A DNA stretch of 5,295 nucleotides, from IMG/VR virus record IMGVR_UViG_2526164633_000031. The stretch is one strand, 5' to 3'. Shown piece after piece: positions 1-5,295 of this stretch. Under the pieces are notes generated by a model. The model was not told the origin of the DNA. It saw only the letters and a list, made by a program, of their open reading frames with translations, and did not search any database. How positions within the stretch are numbered: the first letter of the stretch is position 1; the number at the start of each line of letters is the position of its first letter. The stretch comes from a virus. Its lineage: Duplodnaviria; Heunggongvirae; Uroviricota; Caudoviricetes. The position numbers and the translations under genes were made by a program.

Positions 1-1
1 T

Positions 2-82
2 GCCGACACAGAAGACACCGTGCTGGAAATTCAGCGGCTGGCTACAGTCTGCCGCGACACCCTGAATGGCATGACGAAGTAA
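2..82 (+). CDS. 3' end of an upstream CDS, 5'-truncated by the window edge; small protein of unknown function
   Basis: Frame 2 is open from the window edge and ends at TAA 80-82 (translation ...ADTEDTVLEIQRLATVCRDTLNGMTK*). The stop lies 6 nt before the rep ATG at 89, an arrangement typical of translational coupling in phage early operons. No homology recognised. Confidence 0.4.
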   Translation, partial: ADTEDTVLEIQRLATVCRDTLNGMTK

Positions 83-88
83 ATCACT

Positions 89-2911
89 ATGACGGCAGAG
101 TACATCAGGGACTGGCAGCAACCGCGCCACGCAGTGGGGCGTGAAGGAACGGGGATCCCCGCTCCTGAATCCGCGCTTTCCTCCTGGCTGGATGCCTACC
201 GGGTAGAGAACGAGCGCCGCCAGGAAATGGCTGATGCGGCGTTCTCCGCCACGCCGCTGGGCAACCTGATTAATAAAAGCCTGGACGCACAGGAAAAACA
301 GGACAAAACCATCACACTGGCAGGAGACGCCAGAAAACAGGCACGCGGCGCGGTGGATGAAGCCATGGCCTCGCTGCGCCTGCTGCCGTCCTATCTGCGC
401 GATCCGCTTATTCGCCACCTCTCCTTCCTGCGCAAAAAACAGGAAGCCGATCGCCGGAAAGGCAAAAAGAGCTGGCAGGCTGAACGCTACGCGCGCGGAA
501 CCCTGCGCAAAATATTCGAACGTCTGGACCGCACCGACCACCGCTGGCTGACACCGGGTTATCGCTCCCTTGCCGGACGCGAACGCCTGGATGATTTGCT
601 TTACCTGCCGCAGCTCAACAAGCACCAGATACAGACGCTGGCCACCATGACGGCGGCGATGTTCAGCAGCACCTTCGAAAAACTCTGCGATGGCTTTGGC
701 GCGACTGATGGCGAGCTGACCATGGATGTAACGCTGAAGGCGTATCAAATGCTGGCCCGCATGGCGTTACACCTGCACGCCATGCCTCCGCATTATGACG
801 CACTGACAACAGACAAAGACCGGAGGAACGAACCGGACACGGAGCTGCTGCCGGGCGCAATCCTTCGCCTGACCTGTGCGGAATGGTGGAAACGCAAACT
901 GTGGCTGTTACGTTGCGAGTGGAGAGAAGAACAACTCCGCGCCGCCTGTCTGGTTTTCAGAAAAACATCACCCTATCTGAGCCAGGACGCGTTAAGCGAG
1001 TTTCGCGCACAGCGCGAGAAAACACGCGATTTCCTGAAAAGTTTCATGCTGGAAAATGAAGACGGGTTCACGATTGATCTCGAGACGGTGTATTACGCGG
1101 GAGTAAGTAACCCGGTTCACCGTAAGGCAGAAATGATGGCCACCATGAAGGGACTGGAACTTCTGGCCGAAGCCCGTGGCGACAGAGCGGTGTTTCTGAC
1201 TGTCACCTGCCCGTCAAAATACCACGCAACAACGGAGAATGGTCATCCGAACCCCAAATGGAACGGGGCCACCATGCGCGACTCCAGCGATTACCTGGTT
1301 AACACGTTTTTTGCGGCGGTCCGCAAAAAACTGAACCGCGACGGTCTGCGCTGGTATGGCATCCGCACGGTAGAGCCTCACCATGACGGCACTGTGCACT
1401 GGCATATGATGGTCTTTGCTCATCCGGAAGAAATCGACAGCATCGTGGCCATCACCCGCGATATTGCCATTCAGGAAGACCGCCACGAGCTGGGCAATGA
1501 TATTACTCCGCGCTTTAAGGCGGAGTATGTCGACGGCTCAAAAGGCACACCAACCAGCTATATCGCGACCTACATCGGAAAAAACCTGGACAGCCGCGCC
1601 GTAGATGGCATCGACCCGAAAACGGGCAAGCCACGCGTTGACCACGAAACCGGAAAATCAATGGCCGAGAGCGTGGAACGCGCCATCGGCTGGGCGCGCC
1701 TTCACCGGGTCCGCCAGTTCCAGTTCTTTGGTATCCCCTCCCGTCAGGTGTGGCGTGAACTGCGCCGCCTTGCCAGCCAGATGGCACGCAACCCGGAAGG
1801 CCCGCAACGGCTGAAGGATGACGCAATGGACGCGGTACTCGCTGCCGCTGATGCCGGATGTTTTGCCACCTACATTGAGAAACAGGGTGGCGTACTTGTT
1901 CCACGCAAAGACTACCTGATTCGCACCGCCTACGACCTCGCAGATGAGCTGAACGATTACGGCGAGCAGAGTGTACAGATTTACGGGATCTGGTCGCCGC
2001 TCATCGGGGAGTCTTCCCGCGTGTGCACGCACCCGGATAACTGGAAGCTAGTAAGACGTAAACCGGAAGCGGAAGACAGCGCCCGCGAAAATGGTTTTGA
2101 CCTTCAGGGCGGCCCTGCCGCCCCTTGGACTCGTGGCAATAACTGTCCCCGTGTACAGGAAACGGACAACAACGGGACAGAACAGCTGGAAGAACGGCCA
2201 GCACCGTGGCCGCAGCTTCCTGACGGCGTTGACGTGAATGAATGGATGCGCTCACTGAAACGGCACGAACGCCGGGCGCTGATGCGTTCGCTGCGTGACA
2301 AACAGGCAAAAAACAGCAGTGATGAAATGCAGAACTGGACACAGAGCCGCAAACAGCCACGGCCTTTGCCTGATAACCACGAGTTACTCGCTAAAGAATG
2401 GCGGGAGTCTGCTGAATCTCTCGGCCTGCATATCGGTGAACAGCAGATGCAGCACCTGTTACGGGGCGGCAGTCTGTACGTCGACGGCAGCATCATTGCA
2501 CCGCAGGGATTTGAAATTGTACGCAAACCGGATACCCGACCGGACAGCCGGATCACGCAGCTCTGGCAGCGCCTGAGCCGTAACCACGGCGTAAGCAGCA
2601 CGGAGATCCGCCATAACCCGGTCGCCAGCTATCTGGAACAGCTGGGGGCATCAGACCCCGAAGCCGCCGCACGCCTGGCATCCACACTTCAGCAGGACCA
2701 GAACACCATGAAAACACCCGTTACCGTGCTTTCTGACATGCTGCGCGCCATCCGCGACGCAGAGCACGCACAGAGAATCAGTGAAACCACTGAACGCGCC
2801 CGCCGCAAAGCAGACCTGCTGCGGGGTGGCCTGACCAGTGGAAACAAAAAACAGACAGAAACGGGATTCACAAATCCCGTAAATGAGCAAAAAACGCGCC
2901 GCGATATATGA
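89..2911 (+). CDS. Rolling-circle replication initiator, P2 gpA-like HUH endonuclease (replication gene A protein family)
   Basis: Single 940-aa ORF filling more than half the window. Translation carries an HUH motif (GTVHWHMMVFAHP, His437/His439, nt 1397-1405) followed about 50 residues later by a paired-tyrosine motif (TSYIATYIGKN, Tyr491 and Tyr495, nt 1559-1573). This order and the Y-x3-Y spacing match the phiX174 gpA / P2 gpA superfamily. It is about 180 aa longer than canonical P2 gpA (761 aa, from memory). Confidence 0.85.
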   Translation: MTAEYIRDWQQPRHAVGREGTGIPAPESALSSWLDAYRVENERRQEMADAAFSATPLGNLINKSLDAQEKQDKTITLAGDARKQARGAVDEAMASLRLLPSYLRDPLIRHLSFLRKKQEADRRKGKKSWQAERYARGTLRKIFERLDRTDHRWLTPGYRSLAGRERLDDLLYLPQLNKHQIQTLATMTAAMFSSTFEKLCDGFGATDGELTMDVTLKAYQMLARMALHLHAMPPHYDALTTDKDRRNEPDTELLPGAILRLTCAEWWKRKLWLLRCEWREEQLRAACLVFRKTSPYLSQDALSEFRAQREKTRDFLKSFMLENEDGFTIDLETVYYAGVSNPVHRKAEMMATMKGLELLAEARGDRAVFLTVTCPSKYHATTENGHPNPKWNGATMRDSSDYLVNTFFAAVRKKLNRDGLRWYGIRTVEPHHDGTVHWHMMVFAHPEEIDSIVAITRDIAIQEDRHELGNDITPRFKAEYVDGSKGTPTSYIATYIGKNLDSRAVDGIDPKTGKPRVDHETGKSMAESVERAIGWARLHRVRQFQFFGIPSRQVWRELRRLASQMARNPEGPQRLKDDAMDAVLAAADAGCFATYIEKQGGVLVPRKDYLIRTAYDLADELNDYGEQSVQIYGIWSPLIGESSRVCTHPDNWKLVRRKPEAEDSARENGFDLQGGPAAPWTRGNNCPRVQETDNNGTEQLEERPAPWPQLPDGVDVNEWMRSLKRHERRALMRSLRDKQAKNSSDEMQNWTQSRKQPRPLPDNHELLAKEWRESAESLGLHIGEQQMQHLLRGGSLYVDGSIIAPQGFEIVRKPDTRPDSRITQLWQRLSRNHGVSSTEIRHNPVASYLEQLGASDPEAAARLASTLQQDQNTMKTPVTVLSDMLRAIRDAEHAQRISETTERARRKADLLRGGLTSGNKKQTETGFTNPVNEQKTRRDI
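2861..2880. repeat. 20-bp perfect palindrome ACGGGATT-CACA-AATCCCGT (copy 1), inside the 3' end of rep
   Basis: Read directly: 8-bp arms that are exact reverse complements around a 4-bp spacer, flanked by A-runs (gaaACGGGATTcacaAATCCCGTaaa). The same arms recur at 2934-2953. Confidence 0.9.
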
Positions 2912-2933
2912 AGCGCGCATAAAACAGGCAAAA

Positions 2934-2953
2934 ACGGGATTTCAGAATCCCGT
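2934..2953. repeat. 20-bp perfect palindrome ACGGGATT-TCAG-AATCCCGT (copy 2), in the rep-parM intergenic region
   Basis: Read directly: identical 8-bp arms to copy 1 with a different 4-bp spacer, again flanked by A-runs. Start-to-start distance from copy 1 is 73 bp, about 7 helical turns, so both sites face the same side of the helix. Confidence 0.9.
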
Positions 2954-2987
2954 AAACGATTAATTAATCAACATAAGGAAAAGCGAC

Positions 2988-3947
2988 ATGAAAATTTGTA
3001 TCGACGACGGCTCCACCAACATCAAGCTGGCATGGACTGAGAACGGCGAATGCCGCAACGCCATCAGCCCGAACAGCTTCAAGTCGGAATGGTCTGCGCC
3101 GTTCGGTGGCTCGCAGCCTGCGAACTACATGCTTGATGGCGTGCGCTATGGTTTTGATCCGGTCAGCGATCGCTTTGTCCAGACGACCGACACGCAATAC
3201 CAGTACAGCGATGTGAATGTAATCGCCATTCACCACGCGCTGGTCAAATCAGGCATCACACCACAGGAGGTGGATGTGGTTGTCACCCTGCCACTGAGCG
3301 AGTATTTCGACACAAACGCACAGCCGGACATGGCCAACATCAACCGCAAAAAAGCGAACGTTATGCGCCCGGTGGAGTACCAGAACGGTGAGGCATTCAC
3401 TATCCGTAACGTGCGGGTTATGCCTGAATCCATTCCGGCAGGCTTTAAGGCACTGGCTGACATGAGTCCGTTTGAATCCCTGCTGATTGTGGATTTGGGC
3501 GGAACCACGCTGGATGTGGCAAAGGTTCAGGGACAACTGGCAGGTATCAGCCAGGTGTTTTGCGATCCACACGTAGGTGTTTCACTGATGGCCGATGCCG
3601 TGCTGTCGGTGATGGCCACTAACGGTATGCGCACCAGTCACCACATCGCCAATACCATTATTGAACATCGCCATGATGAAGCCTGGCTGCGCCAGCACAT
3701 CCACAATGACGCGCATTACGCCAGCCTGATGGCGGTTATTCGTGAAAAGGAAGAAACACTGAAACAACGCGTGATCCGCGCGCTGGCGGGTTTTTCGGGT
3801 TACGGGCGGGTGATGGTTGTCGGTGGCGGGGCGGAGATTGTGGCACCCGCTATCCGCGAAGCCTGCGGAGTTAATGCGACTTTCATCGCGGACGGGGTGC
3901 CACAGTTTGCTCTGGTTAATGGGCTGTACGCAATGGACAAGGAGTAA
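2988..3947 (+). CDS. parM: ParM/StbA-family actin-like segregation ATPase (type II plasmid partition)
   Basis: 319-aa ORF with good RBS. Translation aligns along its whole length with plasmid R1 ParM as I recall it (MKICIDDGSTNIKL.., ISPNSFK.EW, YSDVNV.A.HHAL, QPDMA.I.RKKAN, FTI..V.VMPESIPAG, SLLI.DLGGTTLD, GIS...GD...GVSL, VMV.GGGAEI, LVNG.Y). The actin-fold phosphate and adenosine motifs are present. Confidence 0.9.
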   Translation: MKICIDDGSTNIKLAWTENGECRNAISPNSFKSEWSAPFGGSQPANYMLDGVRYGFDPVSDRFVQTTDTQYQYSDVNVIAIHHALVKSGITPQEVDVVVTLPLSEYFDTNAQPDMANINRKKANVMRPVEYQNGEAFTIRNVRVMPESIPAGFKALADMSPFESLLIVDLGGTTLDVAKVQGQLAGISQVFCDPHVGVSLMADAVLSVMATNGMRTSHHIANTIIEHRHDEAWLRQHIHNDAHYASLMAVIREKEETLKQRVIRALAGFSGYGRVMVVGGGAEIVAPAIREACGVNATFIADGVPQFALVNGLYAMDKE

Positions 3948-3951
3948 GCCA

Positions 3952-4263
3952 ATGACGACACCAACCAGACGGATAAGTTTCTATCTGAAGCCCGCCGCCG
4001 TCAAGAACGAAGGCGAAGCATGCGCCTGGCTGGACAGCCTTACACCAGAAGCCCGCAAAAGTGGTCAACGCGTGGCTTTTCTGGCCGGGCTGGCACTACT
4101 GAAAATGAATCCGGCAGAGGCTTACCGACTGGCTGCATGGGCTGATGATGAGGCGTTATCAGTGACACAAACCAGGACAGAACGCCCCGCGTCACAGCCA
4201 GTATCAGCCGCACAGATAACCAGTCAGATGGCCGGAAATATCCGGGCGTTATTTCCCGAATAA
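3952..4263 (+). CDS. parR: ParR/StbB-like ribbon-helix-helix centromere-binding adaptor
   Basis: 103-aa ORF starting 5 nt after the parM stop, with AAGGAG (3939-3944) 7 nt upstream of the ATG. The RRISFYLKP (beta strand) and LDSLTPEARKSGQRVAFLAGLAL segments resemble R1 ParR (RTIAFKLNP / LDSIPQGERSRLNRAALTAGLAL), and the C-terminus ..IRALFPE resembles ..LRSLFPKE. Gene order parC-parM-parR matches R1. The track ORF starting at 3817 is an in-frame 5' extension overlapping parM and is not used. Confidence 0.75.
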   Translation: MTTPTRRISFYLKPAAVKNEGEACAWLDSLTPEARKSGQRVAFLAGLALLKMNPAEAYRLAAWADDEALSVTQTRTERPASQPVSAAQITSQMAGNIRALFPE

Positions 4264-4268
4264 CACAA

Positions 4269-4292
4269 CATCAGGGCGCATCCGCCCTGATG
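4269..4292 (+). terminator. GC-rich hairpin (10-bp perfect stem CATCAGGGCG / CGCCCTGATG, 4-nt loop) after parR; possible weak terminator or attenuator
   Basis: Read directly. The stem begins 6 nt after the parR stop. It is followed by ACTTTAAC, a short T-run rather than a canonical U-tract, so intrinsic termination is uncertain and read-through into the next gene is plausible. Confidence 0.35.
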
Positions 4293-4326
4293 ACTTTAAC
4301 CCGGGAGCATAAACAAGGGGGACACA

Positions 4327-4659
4327 ATGCAACACATTGACAGAGAAAAAGCGCAGCGACTGATTGAGCGGATGGAAGCGCTGGCGAAAGAAGAAAATGT
4401 CAACATCCAAAAAATAGCTGAATGTGGCCAGATAGTTCTTCGTCGTGAAAAAGACCTCAAACAACTGATGTCTGGCGAAACCAGCAAAACATGGACTTCA
4501 GGTGAGGAGACGATTTATTGCAGCTTCTGCAATAAATCCCAGTACGAAGTCACAAAGGTGATTGCTGGACCGTCTGTTTACATCTGCAATGAGTGCGTGG
4601 ATTTGTGCAATGAAATTATCAGGAGAGAAGTGACAGACAAAAAGGGAAAAAACGCATGA
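4327..4659 (+). CDS. Orphan ClpX-type C4 zinc-ribbon (ClpX N-terminal zinc-binding domain) protein with a unique N-terminal helical region; no AAA+ domain
   Basis: 110-aa ORF with strong RBS (AAGGGGGA 4313-4320, 6 nt before the ATG). Residues about 62-100 (nt about 4510-4626: [40 protein letters not shown]) align almost position for position with the E. coli ClpX zinc-binding domain as I recall it ([40 protein letters not shown]). Cys65-x2-Cys68-x18-Cys87-x2-Cys90 matches the ClpX ligand spacing. The ORF ends right after the domain. Residues 1-55 are charged and helix-like with no recognised homology. Confidence 0.8.
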
Positions 4660-4754
4660 ACAGAAGTAAGCGCATCATTTAAACCGTCTTTCGCCTCCCT
4701 TTCCTGTTTCCGATACTAATGTCCATTTTCGCAGTAAAAGGACATTTAAGATGA

Positions 4755-5216
4755 ATGCACGAAAAAGCGGTACTGGCAGATAATCCAGAATTGATCCTGC
4801 GTGTGCTACAGCTGAGATTTGACGAGTCACTGTCGTACCCGCGCATTTCTGCGCAGACTGGTGTCAGCAAAACCGCCATTTTTTCTCTGGTGAGGCGATT
4901 TCACCAGGTATTCACTGACTGGCCTCTTTCCGGTGAATATTCCTGCGGGCAACTGGCCCGGGCTCTTTTCCCGGGGCGATACCCTTCAGCCCCGACCGTG
5001 ACTCAGCCTGTGAAAGCAGAGAAACCCCGCCGGAACCGATTTTCACCGGAGTTTAAATGGAGACTGGTTCAGCAAACTCTTTTACCCGGTGCCTGTGTCG
5101 CACAAATAGCTCGAGAGAATGGAATTAACGATAACCTGCTCTTTAACTGGCGGCATCTCTGGCGTAACGGTGGCCTGCAACCGCCCGGCGAACATGAAAC
5201 ATCGCTACTCCCGTGA
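4755..5216 (+). CDS. Transposase-associated DNA-binding protein, HTH_Tnp_1 type (IS66/IS3-family TnpA/OrfA-like)
   Basis: 153-aa ORF. The C-terminal half (RRNRFSPEFKWRLVQQTLLPGACVAQIARENGINDNLLFNWRHLW) fits the HTH_Tnp_1 pattern of IS first-ORF proteins (RR.YS.EFK ... GI..NLL..WR). A second HTH-like segment sits near the N-terminus (SYPRISAQTGVSKTAIFSLVRRF). Start choice is uncertain: ATG 4751 opens a 10-codon frame, ATG 4755 this ORF, and GTG 5011 is a possible internal start. RBS AAAGGA at 4737-4742. Confidence 0.5.
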   Translation: MHEKAVLADNPELILRVLQLRFDESLSYPRISAQTGVSKTAIFSLVRRFHQVFTDWPLSGEYSCGQLARALFPGRYPSAPTVTQPVKAEKPRRNRFSPEFKWRLVQQTLLPGACVAQIARENGINDNLLFNWRHLWRNGGLQPPGEHETSLLP

Positions 5217-5295
5217 CGTTAACTCCGGAGCCGGATAATAAAATCCCGGCACCAGTGCAGATACCTGAACAGATAAATACACTGCCAGACAGTCT
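5213..5295 (+). CDS. Possible 5' end of a downstream ORF overlapping the previous stop (GTGA overlap), truncated by window end
   Basis: GTG 5213-5215 overlaps TGA 5214-5216. That frame stays open to the window end (VTLTPEPDNKIPAPVQIPEQINTLPDS..). It is either a coupled next gene, as in tnpA-tnpB arrangements, or the continuation of a frameshifted transposase ORF. Confidence 0.25.
   Translation, partial: MTLTPEPDNKIPAPVQIPEQINTLPDS

Follow-up and report, generated by a model that had tools for sequence, protein, structure and literature searches.

Why would a temperate phage carry its own free copy of the docking domain found at the N-terminus of its host's ClpX? The question is raised by a small gene in a 5,295-nucleotide stretch of viral DNA (IMG/VR record IMGVR_UViG_2526164633_000031; the whole stretch is called the window here) that carries part of a P2-like prophage. 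The product of this gene joins a family-specific helical hairpin to a C-terminal zinc-binding domain of the ClpX type, and it belongs to a family that is real, conserved and under selection. The mechanism that we propose for it is plausible, judging from the sequences: we tentatively favor the reading that it is a phage accessory protein that would mimic the host ClpX's N-terminal docking domain and act as a decoy for adaptors and substrates. ClpXP has under its control sigma-S, SOS proteins, antitoxins and proteins that lambda and Mu need for replication and transposition, and its selectivity resides mostly in the small N-domain. With a conserved phage copy of this domain, nature would have a means to inhibit selectively, or to redirect, the proteolysis that depends on the N-domain.

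A ClpX-type zinc-binding domain without an AAA+ module

The protein (110 amino acids, aa) is identical to WP_001163780.1 of E. coli UMNF18, named "ClpX C4-type zinc finger protein" by PGAP, and the DNA from 4290 to 4665 is 100% identical to that strain. The Pfam search returned PF06689 (zf-C4_ClpX) with 64.5 bits against a gathering cut-off of 27 bits (E 8.2e-18; residues 64-99, profile positions 2-38 of 39). BLASTP aligned residues 52-104 with residues 2-54 of E. coli ClpX at 33 identities in 53 positions (62%, E 1e-21), and over the 40-residue core the identity was 78%. Among PDB sequences, the best matches were 1OVX and 2DS5 (E ~2e-19), which hold ClpX's zinc-binding domain in isolation. 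Cysteines C65, C68, C87 and C90 are spaced like the ligands in ClpX (CxxC...CxxC) and do not vary among the full-length homologs or in any of the 13 subfamily representatives; C94, the counterpart of a ClpX cysteine that is not a ligand, is variable (C94Y in cluster P0003). The AlphaFold2 model (mean pLDDT 76) has a low-confidence linker at residues 53-59, between the hairpin and the zinc domain, and Foldseek superposed the model on 2DS5_A with a root-mean-square deviation of 0.7 Å, 75% identity over 40 columns and a TM score (target) of 0.88. As predicted by this model, the fold of the ClpX zinc-binding domain is present, and the four cysteines are putative zinc ligands.

The AAA+ module of ClpX is absent. 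The ClpX equivalog models TIGR00382 and PRK05342 gave 50.2 and 48.7 bits, where 370.75 and 359 bits are required, and were matched only at model positions 3-52. The protein also matched phrog_6797 (function unknown) from end to end (E 1.5e-58; residues 1-106, profile positions 5-107 of 107), as did its homolog from the D6-like phages described below (E 4.5e-58). By these profile matches, it is classed as a member of PF06689 and phrog_6797 and not as a ClpX. The initial annotation of this gene, made from the sequence alone, had recognized a ClpX zinc domain deprived of its unfoldase; the PF06689 scan and the alignment with ClpX bear out the first part of that identification and the equivalog models the second. 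It could have failed on a missing profile match or on cysteine ligands that vary among homologs; the match is strong and the ligands are conserved.

A name that many members of the family carry, "carboxylate--amine ligase" (P88 gp19, D6 orf93, clusters P0001-P0015), has no counterpart in the proteins, as no ligase domain was detectable in the members so named. It appears to be a propagated mis-annotation.

The N-terminal hairpin

Residues 1-40 of the hairpin were modeled at a pLDDT of 82-92. Residues 1-60 were compared with 1.84 billion representative proteins, which gave 12 matches; these were family members, full-length or cut, and one repetitive protein of 1212 aa. No relative outside the family was found, the hairpin occurring only in fusion with the zinc domain. 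P0123 and P0127 keep both the hairpin and the zinc domain, with 41-58% identity to residues 1-60. The PDB held no sequence relative of the hairpin (best E 0.24), and the structure searches gave matches to the zinc domain only, with no relative of the hairpin fold. A Pfam match of the protein to NAF (E 0.099) was weak and was judged to be noise.

C33 is conserved in at least 90% of the sequences, and the charged positions E17, E22/E23, R39/R40 and D43 are conserved within the E. coli/Salmonella subfamilies. Between subfamilies, the hairpin retains 12-47% identity and the zinc domain 60-70%. The hairpin is thus a domain in its own right, and the fusion of the zinc domain to an unrelated helical N-terminus, as first described, holds for the modeled hairpin, for which relatives were not detectable.

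Both domains are under purifying selection

Ratios of nonsynonymous to synonymous substitution (dN/dS) within subfamilies were 0.04-0.19 at dS values of 0.3-2.3 for the two domains, those of the hairpin falling between 0.06 and 0.18. In the comparison of loci L077 and L078 (dS ~1.1) the ratio was 0.06 for the hairpin and 0.07 for the zinc domain; between L086 and L090 the values were 0.07 and 0.19; and between L076 and L080 the zinc domain gave 0.04, the synonymous sites of the hairpin being saturated. Such strong purifying selection indicates a functional protein and no decaying fragment of clpX. The two-domain architecture is retained down to 36-50% overall identity.

Distribution and genomic context of the family

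At least 80% of the gene was found at the DNA level in 112 of 5426 complete E. coli genomes (about 2%), among them UMNF18 (100% identical), UTI89, NU14, an ST131 strain and O55:H7 CB9615. A survey of 80 IMG/VR loci distinguished three genomic contexts. In the first (~31 P88-like loci) the order is gpA-ParM-ParR-gene-...-portal. In the second (~10 divergent P2-like phages) a homolog with 36-70% identity lies between gpA and the portal gene in the same orientation, mostly without ParMR; gpA and portal of these phages are 31-52% and 58-72% identical to those of the window's phage, and examples from Salmonella and E. coli assemblies agree with this arrangement. The third (~28 loci, homologs 48-52% identical) has neither gpA nor portal nearby and includes phage D6 (orf93), PhiR41_1 and CMS-2020a, the last two being 107-109-kb records of D6-like phage-plasmids. 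There the gene sits in long one-directional blocks with Ead/Ea22, EaA, DUF551, DUF4014 and similar small genes.

Recurrence of homologs at the same position in related elements, which had been put forward as a check, was therefore found, the position being the slot from gpA to portal: the portal gene follows in P88, UMNF18, UTI89 and about 40 viral contigs. The stretch from gpA (with or without ParMR) to portal is variable among close relatives, in keeping with the status of cargo on a mobile element that had been assigned to the gene. The GC content of the gene, first estimated at about 43% and below that of its neighbors, is 43.5%, against 58.0% for gpA, 55.3% for parM and 55.4% for parR. 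Separate acquisition, which had been deduced from this difference, agrees with the low GC content and is nevertheless too simple, given that homologs occupy the same slot in phages whose gpA is only 31-52% identical; for the same reason, the association with the P2-like group is old and partly vertical. The gene has long resided, semi-stably, in temperate phages of enterobacteria, and the only constant feature of its context is a block of co-oriented small accessory genes, located after gpA in the P2-like phages and among Ead/Ea22, DUF551 and DUF4014 genes in the D6-like phages.

The neighbors on either side are not fixed. The gene occurs both with and without ParM/ParR, and the suggestion that it serves specifically to stabilize ParR or Rep was not sustained. 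Its downstream neighbor is coupled to it through an ATGA overlap in P88, UTI89 and UMNF18; elsewhere, this place is taken by doc/phd on the opposite strand, by other genes, by an insertion sequence (IS) or by nothing. A dedicated two-gene or type II toxin-antitoxin system with the downstream gene was ruled out, as the pairing is unconserved and the P88 gp20 family, to which the neighbor belongs, is a broad mosaic prophage family with ead/Ea22- and YcgB-type members.

Two adjacencies were recorded during this survey. In E. coli 1190 (L008, 5038-6291) a doc/phd pair follows the zinc-domain gene on the opposite strand; the Phd protein of P1 is a ClpXP substrate, and the adjacency may or may not be meaningful. 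In PhiR41_1 (L096, 6043-6366 and 9883-10272) the zinc-domain homolog is followed 3.5 kb downstream, within one and the same one-directional block, by a homolog of UmuD, a protein that delivers UmuD' for degradation by docking on the N-domain of ClpX.

Other stand-alone ClpX-type zinc domains

The domain also occurs alone. Pseudomonas phage PP9W2 encodes a 65-aa protein consisting only of the zinc domain (phrog_12435), and in Caulobacter phage Cr30 an open reading frame (ORF) of up to 79 aa (L098, 1222-1461), of which the record annotates only the 41-aa gp170, encodes a stand-alone ClpX-type zinc domain. That unrelated phages carry such mini-proteins speaks for the domain itself as the active part.

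In another set of proteins (P0031, P0061, P0085 and P0116; 136-182 aa), found in JGI metagenomes and on one 2.86-Mb NCBI contig, a ClpX-type zinc domain is N-terminal and is followed by a C-terminal segment resembling a helix-turn-helix (HTH; …GVSWARIGEALGMTRQSAWERF…).

The docking surface and a decoy mechanism

F67 and I97/I98 are the counterparts of the hydrophobic docking site of ClpX. Its residues were compared in the 13 subfamily representatives, with ClpX numbering that counts the initial Met as 1. ClpX F17 is F in all 13, I47 is I in 12 and V in one, I48 is I in 12 and L in one, and A30 is invariant. Position L13 is occupied by L, I or Y, and H23 by H or Y in 11 of the 13. L12 is never kept, being replaced by T, E, K, P or N. 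As far as the alignment can tell, the docking surface is largely, though incompletely, preserved. Titration, heterodimerization and tethering, the mechanisms first put forward for the gene, are plausible and find partial support in this pattern of residues.

In ClpX, F16/I46 in the Houry numbering (F17/I47 with Met) lie in a site common to lambda O, trigger factor, SspB and RssB, and lambda O is not degraded without the zinc-binding domain (PMC7804408). RssB docks on this domain (PMC7226468), and binding of the MqsA degron, at a site overlapping that of the SspB tail, needs L12, L13 and H23 and is impaired in an L12S mutant (PMC8808172).

The decoy that we favor would work as follows. The gene would be transcribed along with the early genes of the phage. 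Such early co-expression is probable, as the gene starts 63 nt past parR on the same strand, has a strong ribosome-binding site, and is preceded by a DNA hairpin that resembles a terminator on the minus strand only; moreover, no sigma-70-like promoter was found in 3900-4800, where the best -10/-35 candidates seen by eye were poor. The free zinc domain would then fold and dimerize like the N-domain of ClpX and present a ClpX-like hydrophobic docking site, with which it could compete with ClpX for the adaptors SspB and RssB, for UmuD, and for lambda O, MuA and unfolded antitoxins such as MqsA. In vitro, the degradation of lambda O and MuA by ClpXP is reportedly inhibited when the zinc-binding domain of this unfoldase is supplied in trans on its own (work attributed to Wojtyra and co-workers, 2003). 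The outcome would be a selective lowering of N-domain-dependent proteolysis, with the protease not blocked overall, and the phage-specific hairpin might add avidity or a second contact. The phage would profit in that one of its labile proteins is protected, or a host or rival-phage process that requires ClpXP is blunted. A labile phage replication or regulatory protein, antitoxins (abortive infection being triggered when ClpXP removes them), UmuD-type proteins and, through RssB, sigma-S may be named as speculative ligands. The lack of a fixed partner and the variable downstream neighbors fit action on a conserved host target.

Each phage subfamily is 65-88% identical to E. coli ClpX in this domain and on average 60-73% identical to the other phage subfamilies. 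This greater closeness to ClpX than to sister subfamilies fits a pressure to remain ClpX-like, as seen in the alignments, and would equally result from slow evolution of ClpX. Forty residues gave no phylogenetic resolution as to the origin of the domain.

Several observations weigh against the decoy. The loss of L12 throughout the family, together with the surface changes of the D6-like group, in which the beta-turn GPSVY becomes GD(N/A)VF and, in part, the helix VDLC becomes VKDC, means that the ligand range may differ from that of ClpX. The zinc domain of the 136-aa HTH-like family is also highly similar to that of ClpX and may be a mere dimerizer there, so that similarity to ClpX is in itself no proof of mimicry. 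Early expression rests on gene order and a weak consensus scan, and a decoy must be abundant relative to ClpX. Finally, the gene is dispensable, a clean deletion being present in about a third of related E. coli prophages: among the 170 E. coli genomes that gave a match, 58 had none covering at least 80% of the query, and the 14 such partial matches listed were all limited to window positions 4290-4351. In the one inspected (L097, 3538-3576, from E. coli O26 RM8426), the gene has been removed cleanly between short AAAAAG repeats. The deletion leaves a 12-codon ORF still joined to the next gene by ATGA, so that translational coupling seems to be preserved.

Alternative explanations

Among the rivals of the decoy reading, the one that survives best, itself doubtful, is a role independent of ClpX, in which the zinc domain would be a compact dimerization or peptide-binding module and the hairpin the effector, for example as a small protein that regulates or inhibits some other protein of host or phage. 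The domain, known to dimerize (PMC5415555), is reused in architectures apparently unrelated to proteolysis, as in the 136-aa HTH-like family (P0031, P0061); L12 has been lost, the D6-like subfamily alters surface positions, and the neighbors are generic genes of the Ead/Ea22 type. However, conservation of F17, I47 and I48 equals that of the zinc ligands, the subfamilies are nearer to E. coli ClpX than to one another, and phage proteins made of the zinc domain only do exist, in which a bare dimerizer would have no function.

The protein might instead hijack ClpXP as an adaptor or poison subunit, which we consider unlikely. The zinc domain would pair with the N-domain of ClpX or dock on the ring, planting the hairpin on ClpXP, where it would recruit a host or rival-phage protein for destruction or disturb the trimer-of-dimers of N-domains. 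A hairpin that diverges faster than the zinc domain is expected where a variable target is combined with a conserved ClpX contact, and the conservation of the hairpin as its own domain (C33, the charged positions and its low dN/dS) agrees with such a role. ClpXP activity responds to the number of free N-domain dimers (PMC7804408). The C-terminal helix (ECVDLCN-II) is near that of ClpX, with E39, C40, V41, I47 and I48 kept in 12-13 of the 13 representatives, and is compatible with pairing. The N-domain dimers of ClpX, on the other hand, are said to be stable (work attributed to Wojtyra and to Donaldson, 2003), and with their high local concentration in the hexamer, exchange with a free domain may be slow; besides, the hairpin that would recruit the target is without a detectable relative.

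An improbable explanation, though one invited by the location, is anti-phage defense or lysogenic conversion, the resident prophage expressing the protein to exclude phages that need the ClpX N-domain (Mu-like phages), much as P2 does with old and tin. The gpA-gpQ slot of P2-like phages is a hotspot of anti-phage systems and the seat of P2 old and tin; about a quarter of these phages carry a partition system there, and the arrangement "StbA + Plasmid_stab_B + zf-C4_ClpX + hypothetical" is listed in Table S5 of the same study (Rousset et al. 2022, PMC9122126). The listed arrangement is, however, outside the systems cloned in that work, the gene is absent from the systems tested, and the hotspot also holds genes of other function (PMC9122126). 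While low GC content is typical of hotspot cargo and MuA is a substrate dependent on the ClpX N-domain (PMC5415555), none of the defense models of PADLOC-DB v2 matched (0 families at E up to 0.1), the gene is without an upstream promoter-like site and is co-oriented and tightly spaced with lytic early genes, and the D6-like phage-plasmids place the family among ea-type early genes and in no defense island.

Non-functional debris, be it a captured 5' piece of clpX or an ORF truncated by the IS, has a negligible chance of being correct and is already refuted in spite of the high identity to clpX and the IS66-family element 7 nt downstream, since the part resembling ClpX lies at the C-terminus, phages without the IS share the stop codon, dN/dS is 0.04-0.19, and the family is spread over 112 of 5426 complete E. 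coli genomes and many viral contigs.

The host element and the IS junction

The features of the window are collected in Table 1. From position 1 to 4665, the window is 97% identical to phage P88 (NC_026014), and P88 and PhiR44_2 (PV340564) match at 97-98% up to 4665. The gene order integrase-C-cox-...-gpA-ParM-ParR-[zinc-domain gene]-...-portal-terminase is that of Xuanwuvirus (P88-like, Peduoviridae), and by this comparison the element is identified as a P88-like (Xuanwuvirus, P2-like) prophage. The neighbors had first been taken for plasmid-type rep/par genes; they proved to be the gpA endonuclease and ParM/ParR of a P2-like prophage. A plasmid context was ruled out by the identity to P88 over 1-4665 and the presence of the element as a chromosomal prophage in E. 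coli. Only the IS part of the window matches ordinary plasmids, with hundreds of matches that start at 4645-4666 and have 98-99.7% identity.

Table 1. Features of the window, with the evidence for each
Feature	Position	Strand	Evidence or remark
gpA replication endonuclease	89-2911	+	Pfam Phage_GPA, E 5e-130
ParM	2988-3947	+	Pfam StbA_N/ParM
ParR/StbB	3952-4263	+	Pfam Plasmid_stab_B
10-bp GC-rich hairpin directly past parR stop	4269-4292	.	Terminator scan; terminator-like on minus strand only
Shine-Dalgarno-like AAGGGGG	4315-4321	+	5 nt 5' of ATG; read from sequence
Zinc-domain gene	4327-4659	+	Intact 110-aa ORF, ATG start; six-frame ORF list
Family-specific helical hairpin, residues 1-58	4327-4500	+	Helices 6-23 and 27-48; C33 nearly invariant
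ClpX-type C4 zinc-binding domain (predicted), residues 62-104	4510-4638	+	Ligands C65, C68, C87, C90
First 10 nt of downstream Ead/Ea22-type gene (P88 gp20 homolog)	4656-4665	+	Comparison with P88 10520-10545
IS66-family left end	4666-5295, running off the window	+	Begins GTAAGCG; homology to P88 ends at 4665
tnpA ORF of IS66-family element	4755-5216	+	NCBIfam IS66_access_TnpA, E 2.9e-66

One plasmid record was encountered (NZ_CP148288.1, E. coli, 34.4 kb, the size of a whole P88-like genome), which matches window positions 392-4351 at 96%; it fits a published guess that ParMR lets P88-like phages persist as plasmids. In E. coli UMNF18, parR is annotated as frameshifted (L006, 8664-8974). As parR is intact in the window and its gpA is of the P88 type, the window comes from a different, closely related prophage.

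The DNA hairpin past parR coincides with a limit of similarity, in that homology to P88_4B11, Shae_phiSM and phage 520873 ends at 4263-4289. It may shield the early operon from cargo transcribed in the opposite direction, or a boundary of recombination may lie there.

The IS66-family element starts 7 nt past the stop codon of the zinc-domain gene. The start of the downstream gene, which codes for 104-112 aa in P88 and PhiR44_2, overlaps that stop codon (ATGA), and comparison with these phages indicates that the IS removed the rest of the downstream gene and left the zinc-domain gene intact. In the window's prophage, the IS probably silences any cargo located farther downstream. In P88 and PhiR44_2, which are free of the IS, the ORF is the same and ends at an identical stop codon. 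An IS-truncated clpX was ruled out on this ground and by the C-terminal location of the domain, which together exclude the possibility, raised in the initial annotation, that the ORF is a 5' fragment of clpX created by the IS.

Significance

The domain call itself is already in Pfam, PHROG and PGAP, and the gene arrangement is in a published supplementary table. Searches of the literature found no characterization of the family, nor of a ClpX zinc-binding domain that any phage encodes on its own; the absence of a characterized function, as initially remarked, was borne out, the only trace being the row that Rousset et al. 2022 give in Table S5. That enterobacterial temperate phages carry a ClpX N-domain mimic that reprograms ClpXP, either as a decoy or by pairing with ClpX and feeding clients to it, is a proposition to which we attach a low probability. 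If it acts as a decoy, proteolysis that depends on adaptors and the N-domain would be shut off, whereby a phage replication or regulatory protein could be stabilized, or the ClpXP-triggered loss of antitoxins and abortive infection could be prevented; if it pairs with ClpX, the fast-evolving hairpin would deliver to the protease a protein selected from the host or a rival phage. In either case, targeting of a bacterial AAA+ protease through a copy of its substrate-docking domain would be described for a viral protein for the first time, and well-studied pathogens (UTI89, NU14, ST131, O55:H7) would be concerned by any influence on stress response, persistence or phage susceptibility. If the protein is independent of ClpX, the finding shrinks to one more small phage gene.

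Comparison with known systems

The closest likeness is to ClpX's own zinc-binding domain, with which the phage protein shares the predicted fold, the C4 ligand spacing, F17, I47 and I48, and 78% identity in the core. Unlike the ClpX domain, the phage copy is free-standing and C-terminal, has no AAA+ ring, is preceded by the hairpin and has T in place of L12. The phrog_12435 protein, the Cr30 ORF and the 136-aa HTH-like family contain the same domain without AAA+; they lack the hairpin and have other domain orders or partners.

With other cargo of the gpA-gpQ hotspot (old, tin, retrons, DprA-PRTase), the gene has in common its slot, its low GC content and its variable presence among related phages. 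In contrast to that cargo, it is no recognized defense system, it recurs in phages down to 31% gpA identity, and it is also found in another type of phage.

Phage accessory proteins that alter the output of a host ATP-dependent protease, the role proposed here, are known in lambda RexB, T4 PinA and T7 Gp4.5. PinA and Gp4.5 are Lon inhibitors. RexB reportedly blocks the degradation of lambda O and the cell death that follows antitoxin loss. These three have no sequence or fold relation to the zinc-domain protein and are no copies of a protease domain, and decoy mimicry has not been described for them; it would join a short list of mechanisms by which phages tune proteases.

A functional parallel would be provided by IraD, IraM and IraP, small proteins that stop one adaptor-dependent ClpXP pathway and leave the protease itself uninhibited. 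They stabilize sigma-S by blocking RssB, and IraD has been proposed to overlap the surface of RssB that docks on the zinc-binding domain in ClpX (PMC7226468). They differ from the phage protein in that they are unrelated in sequence and bind the adaptor RssB by folds of their own, with no imitation of ClpX.

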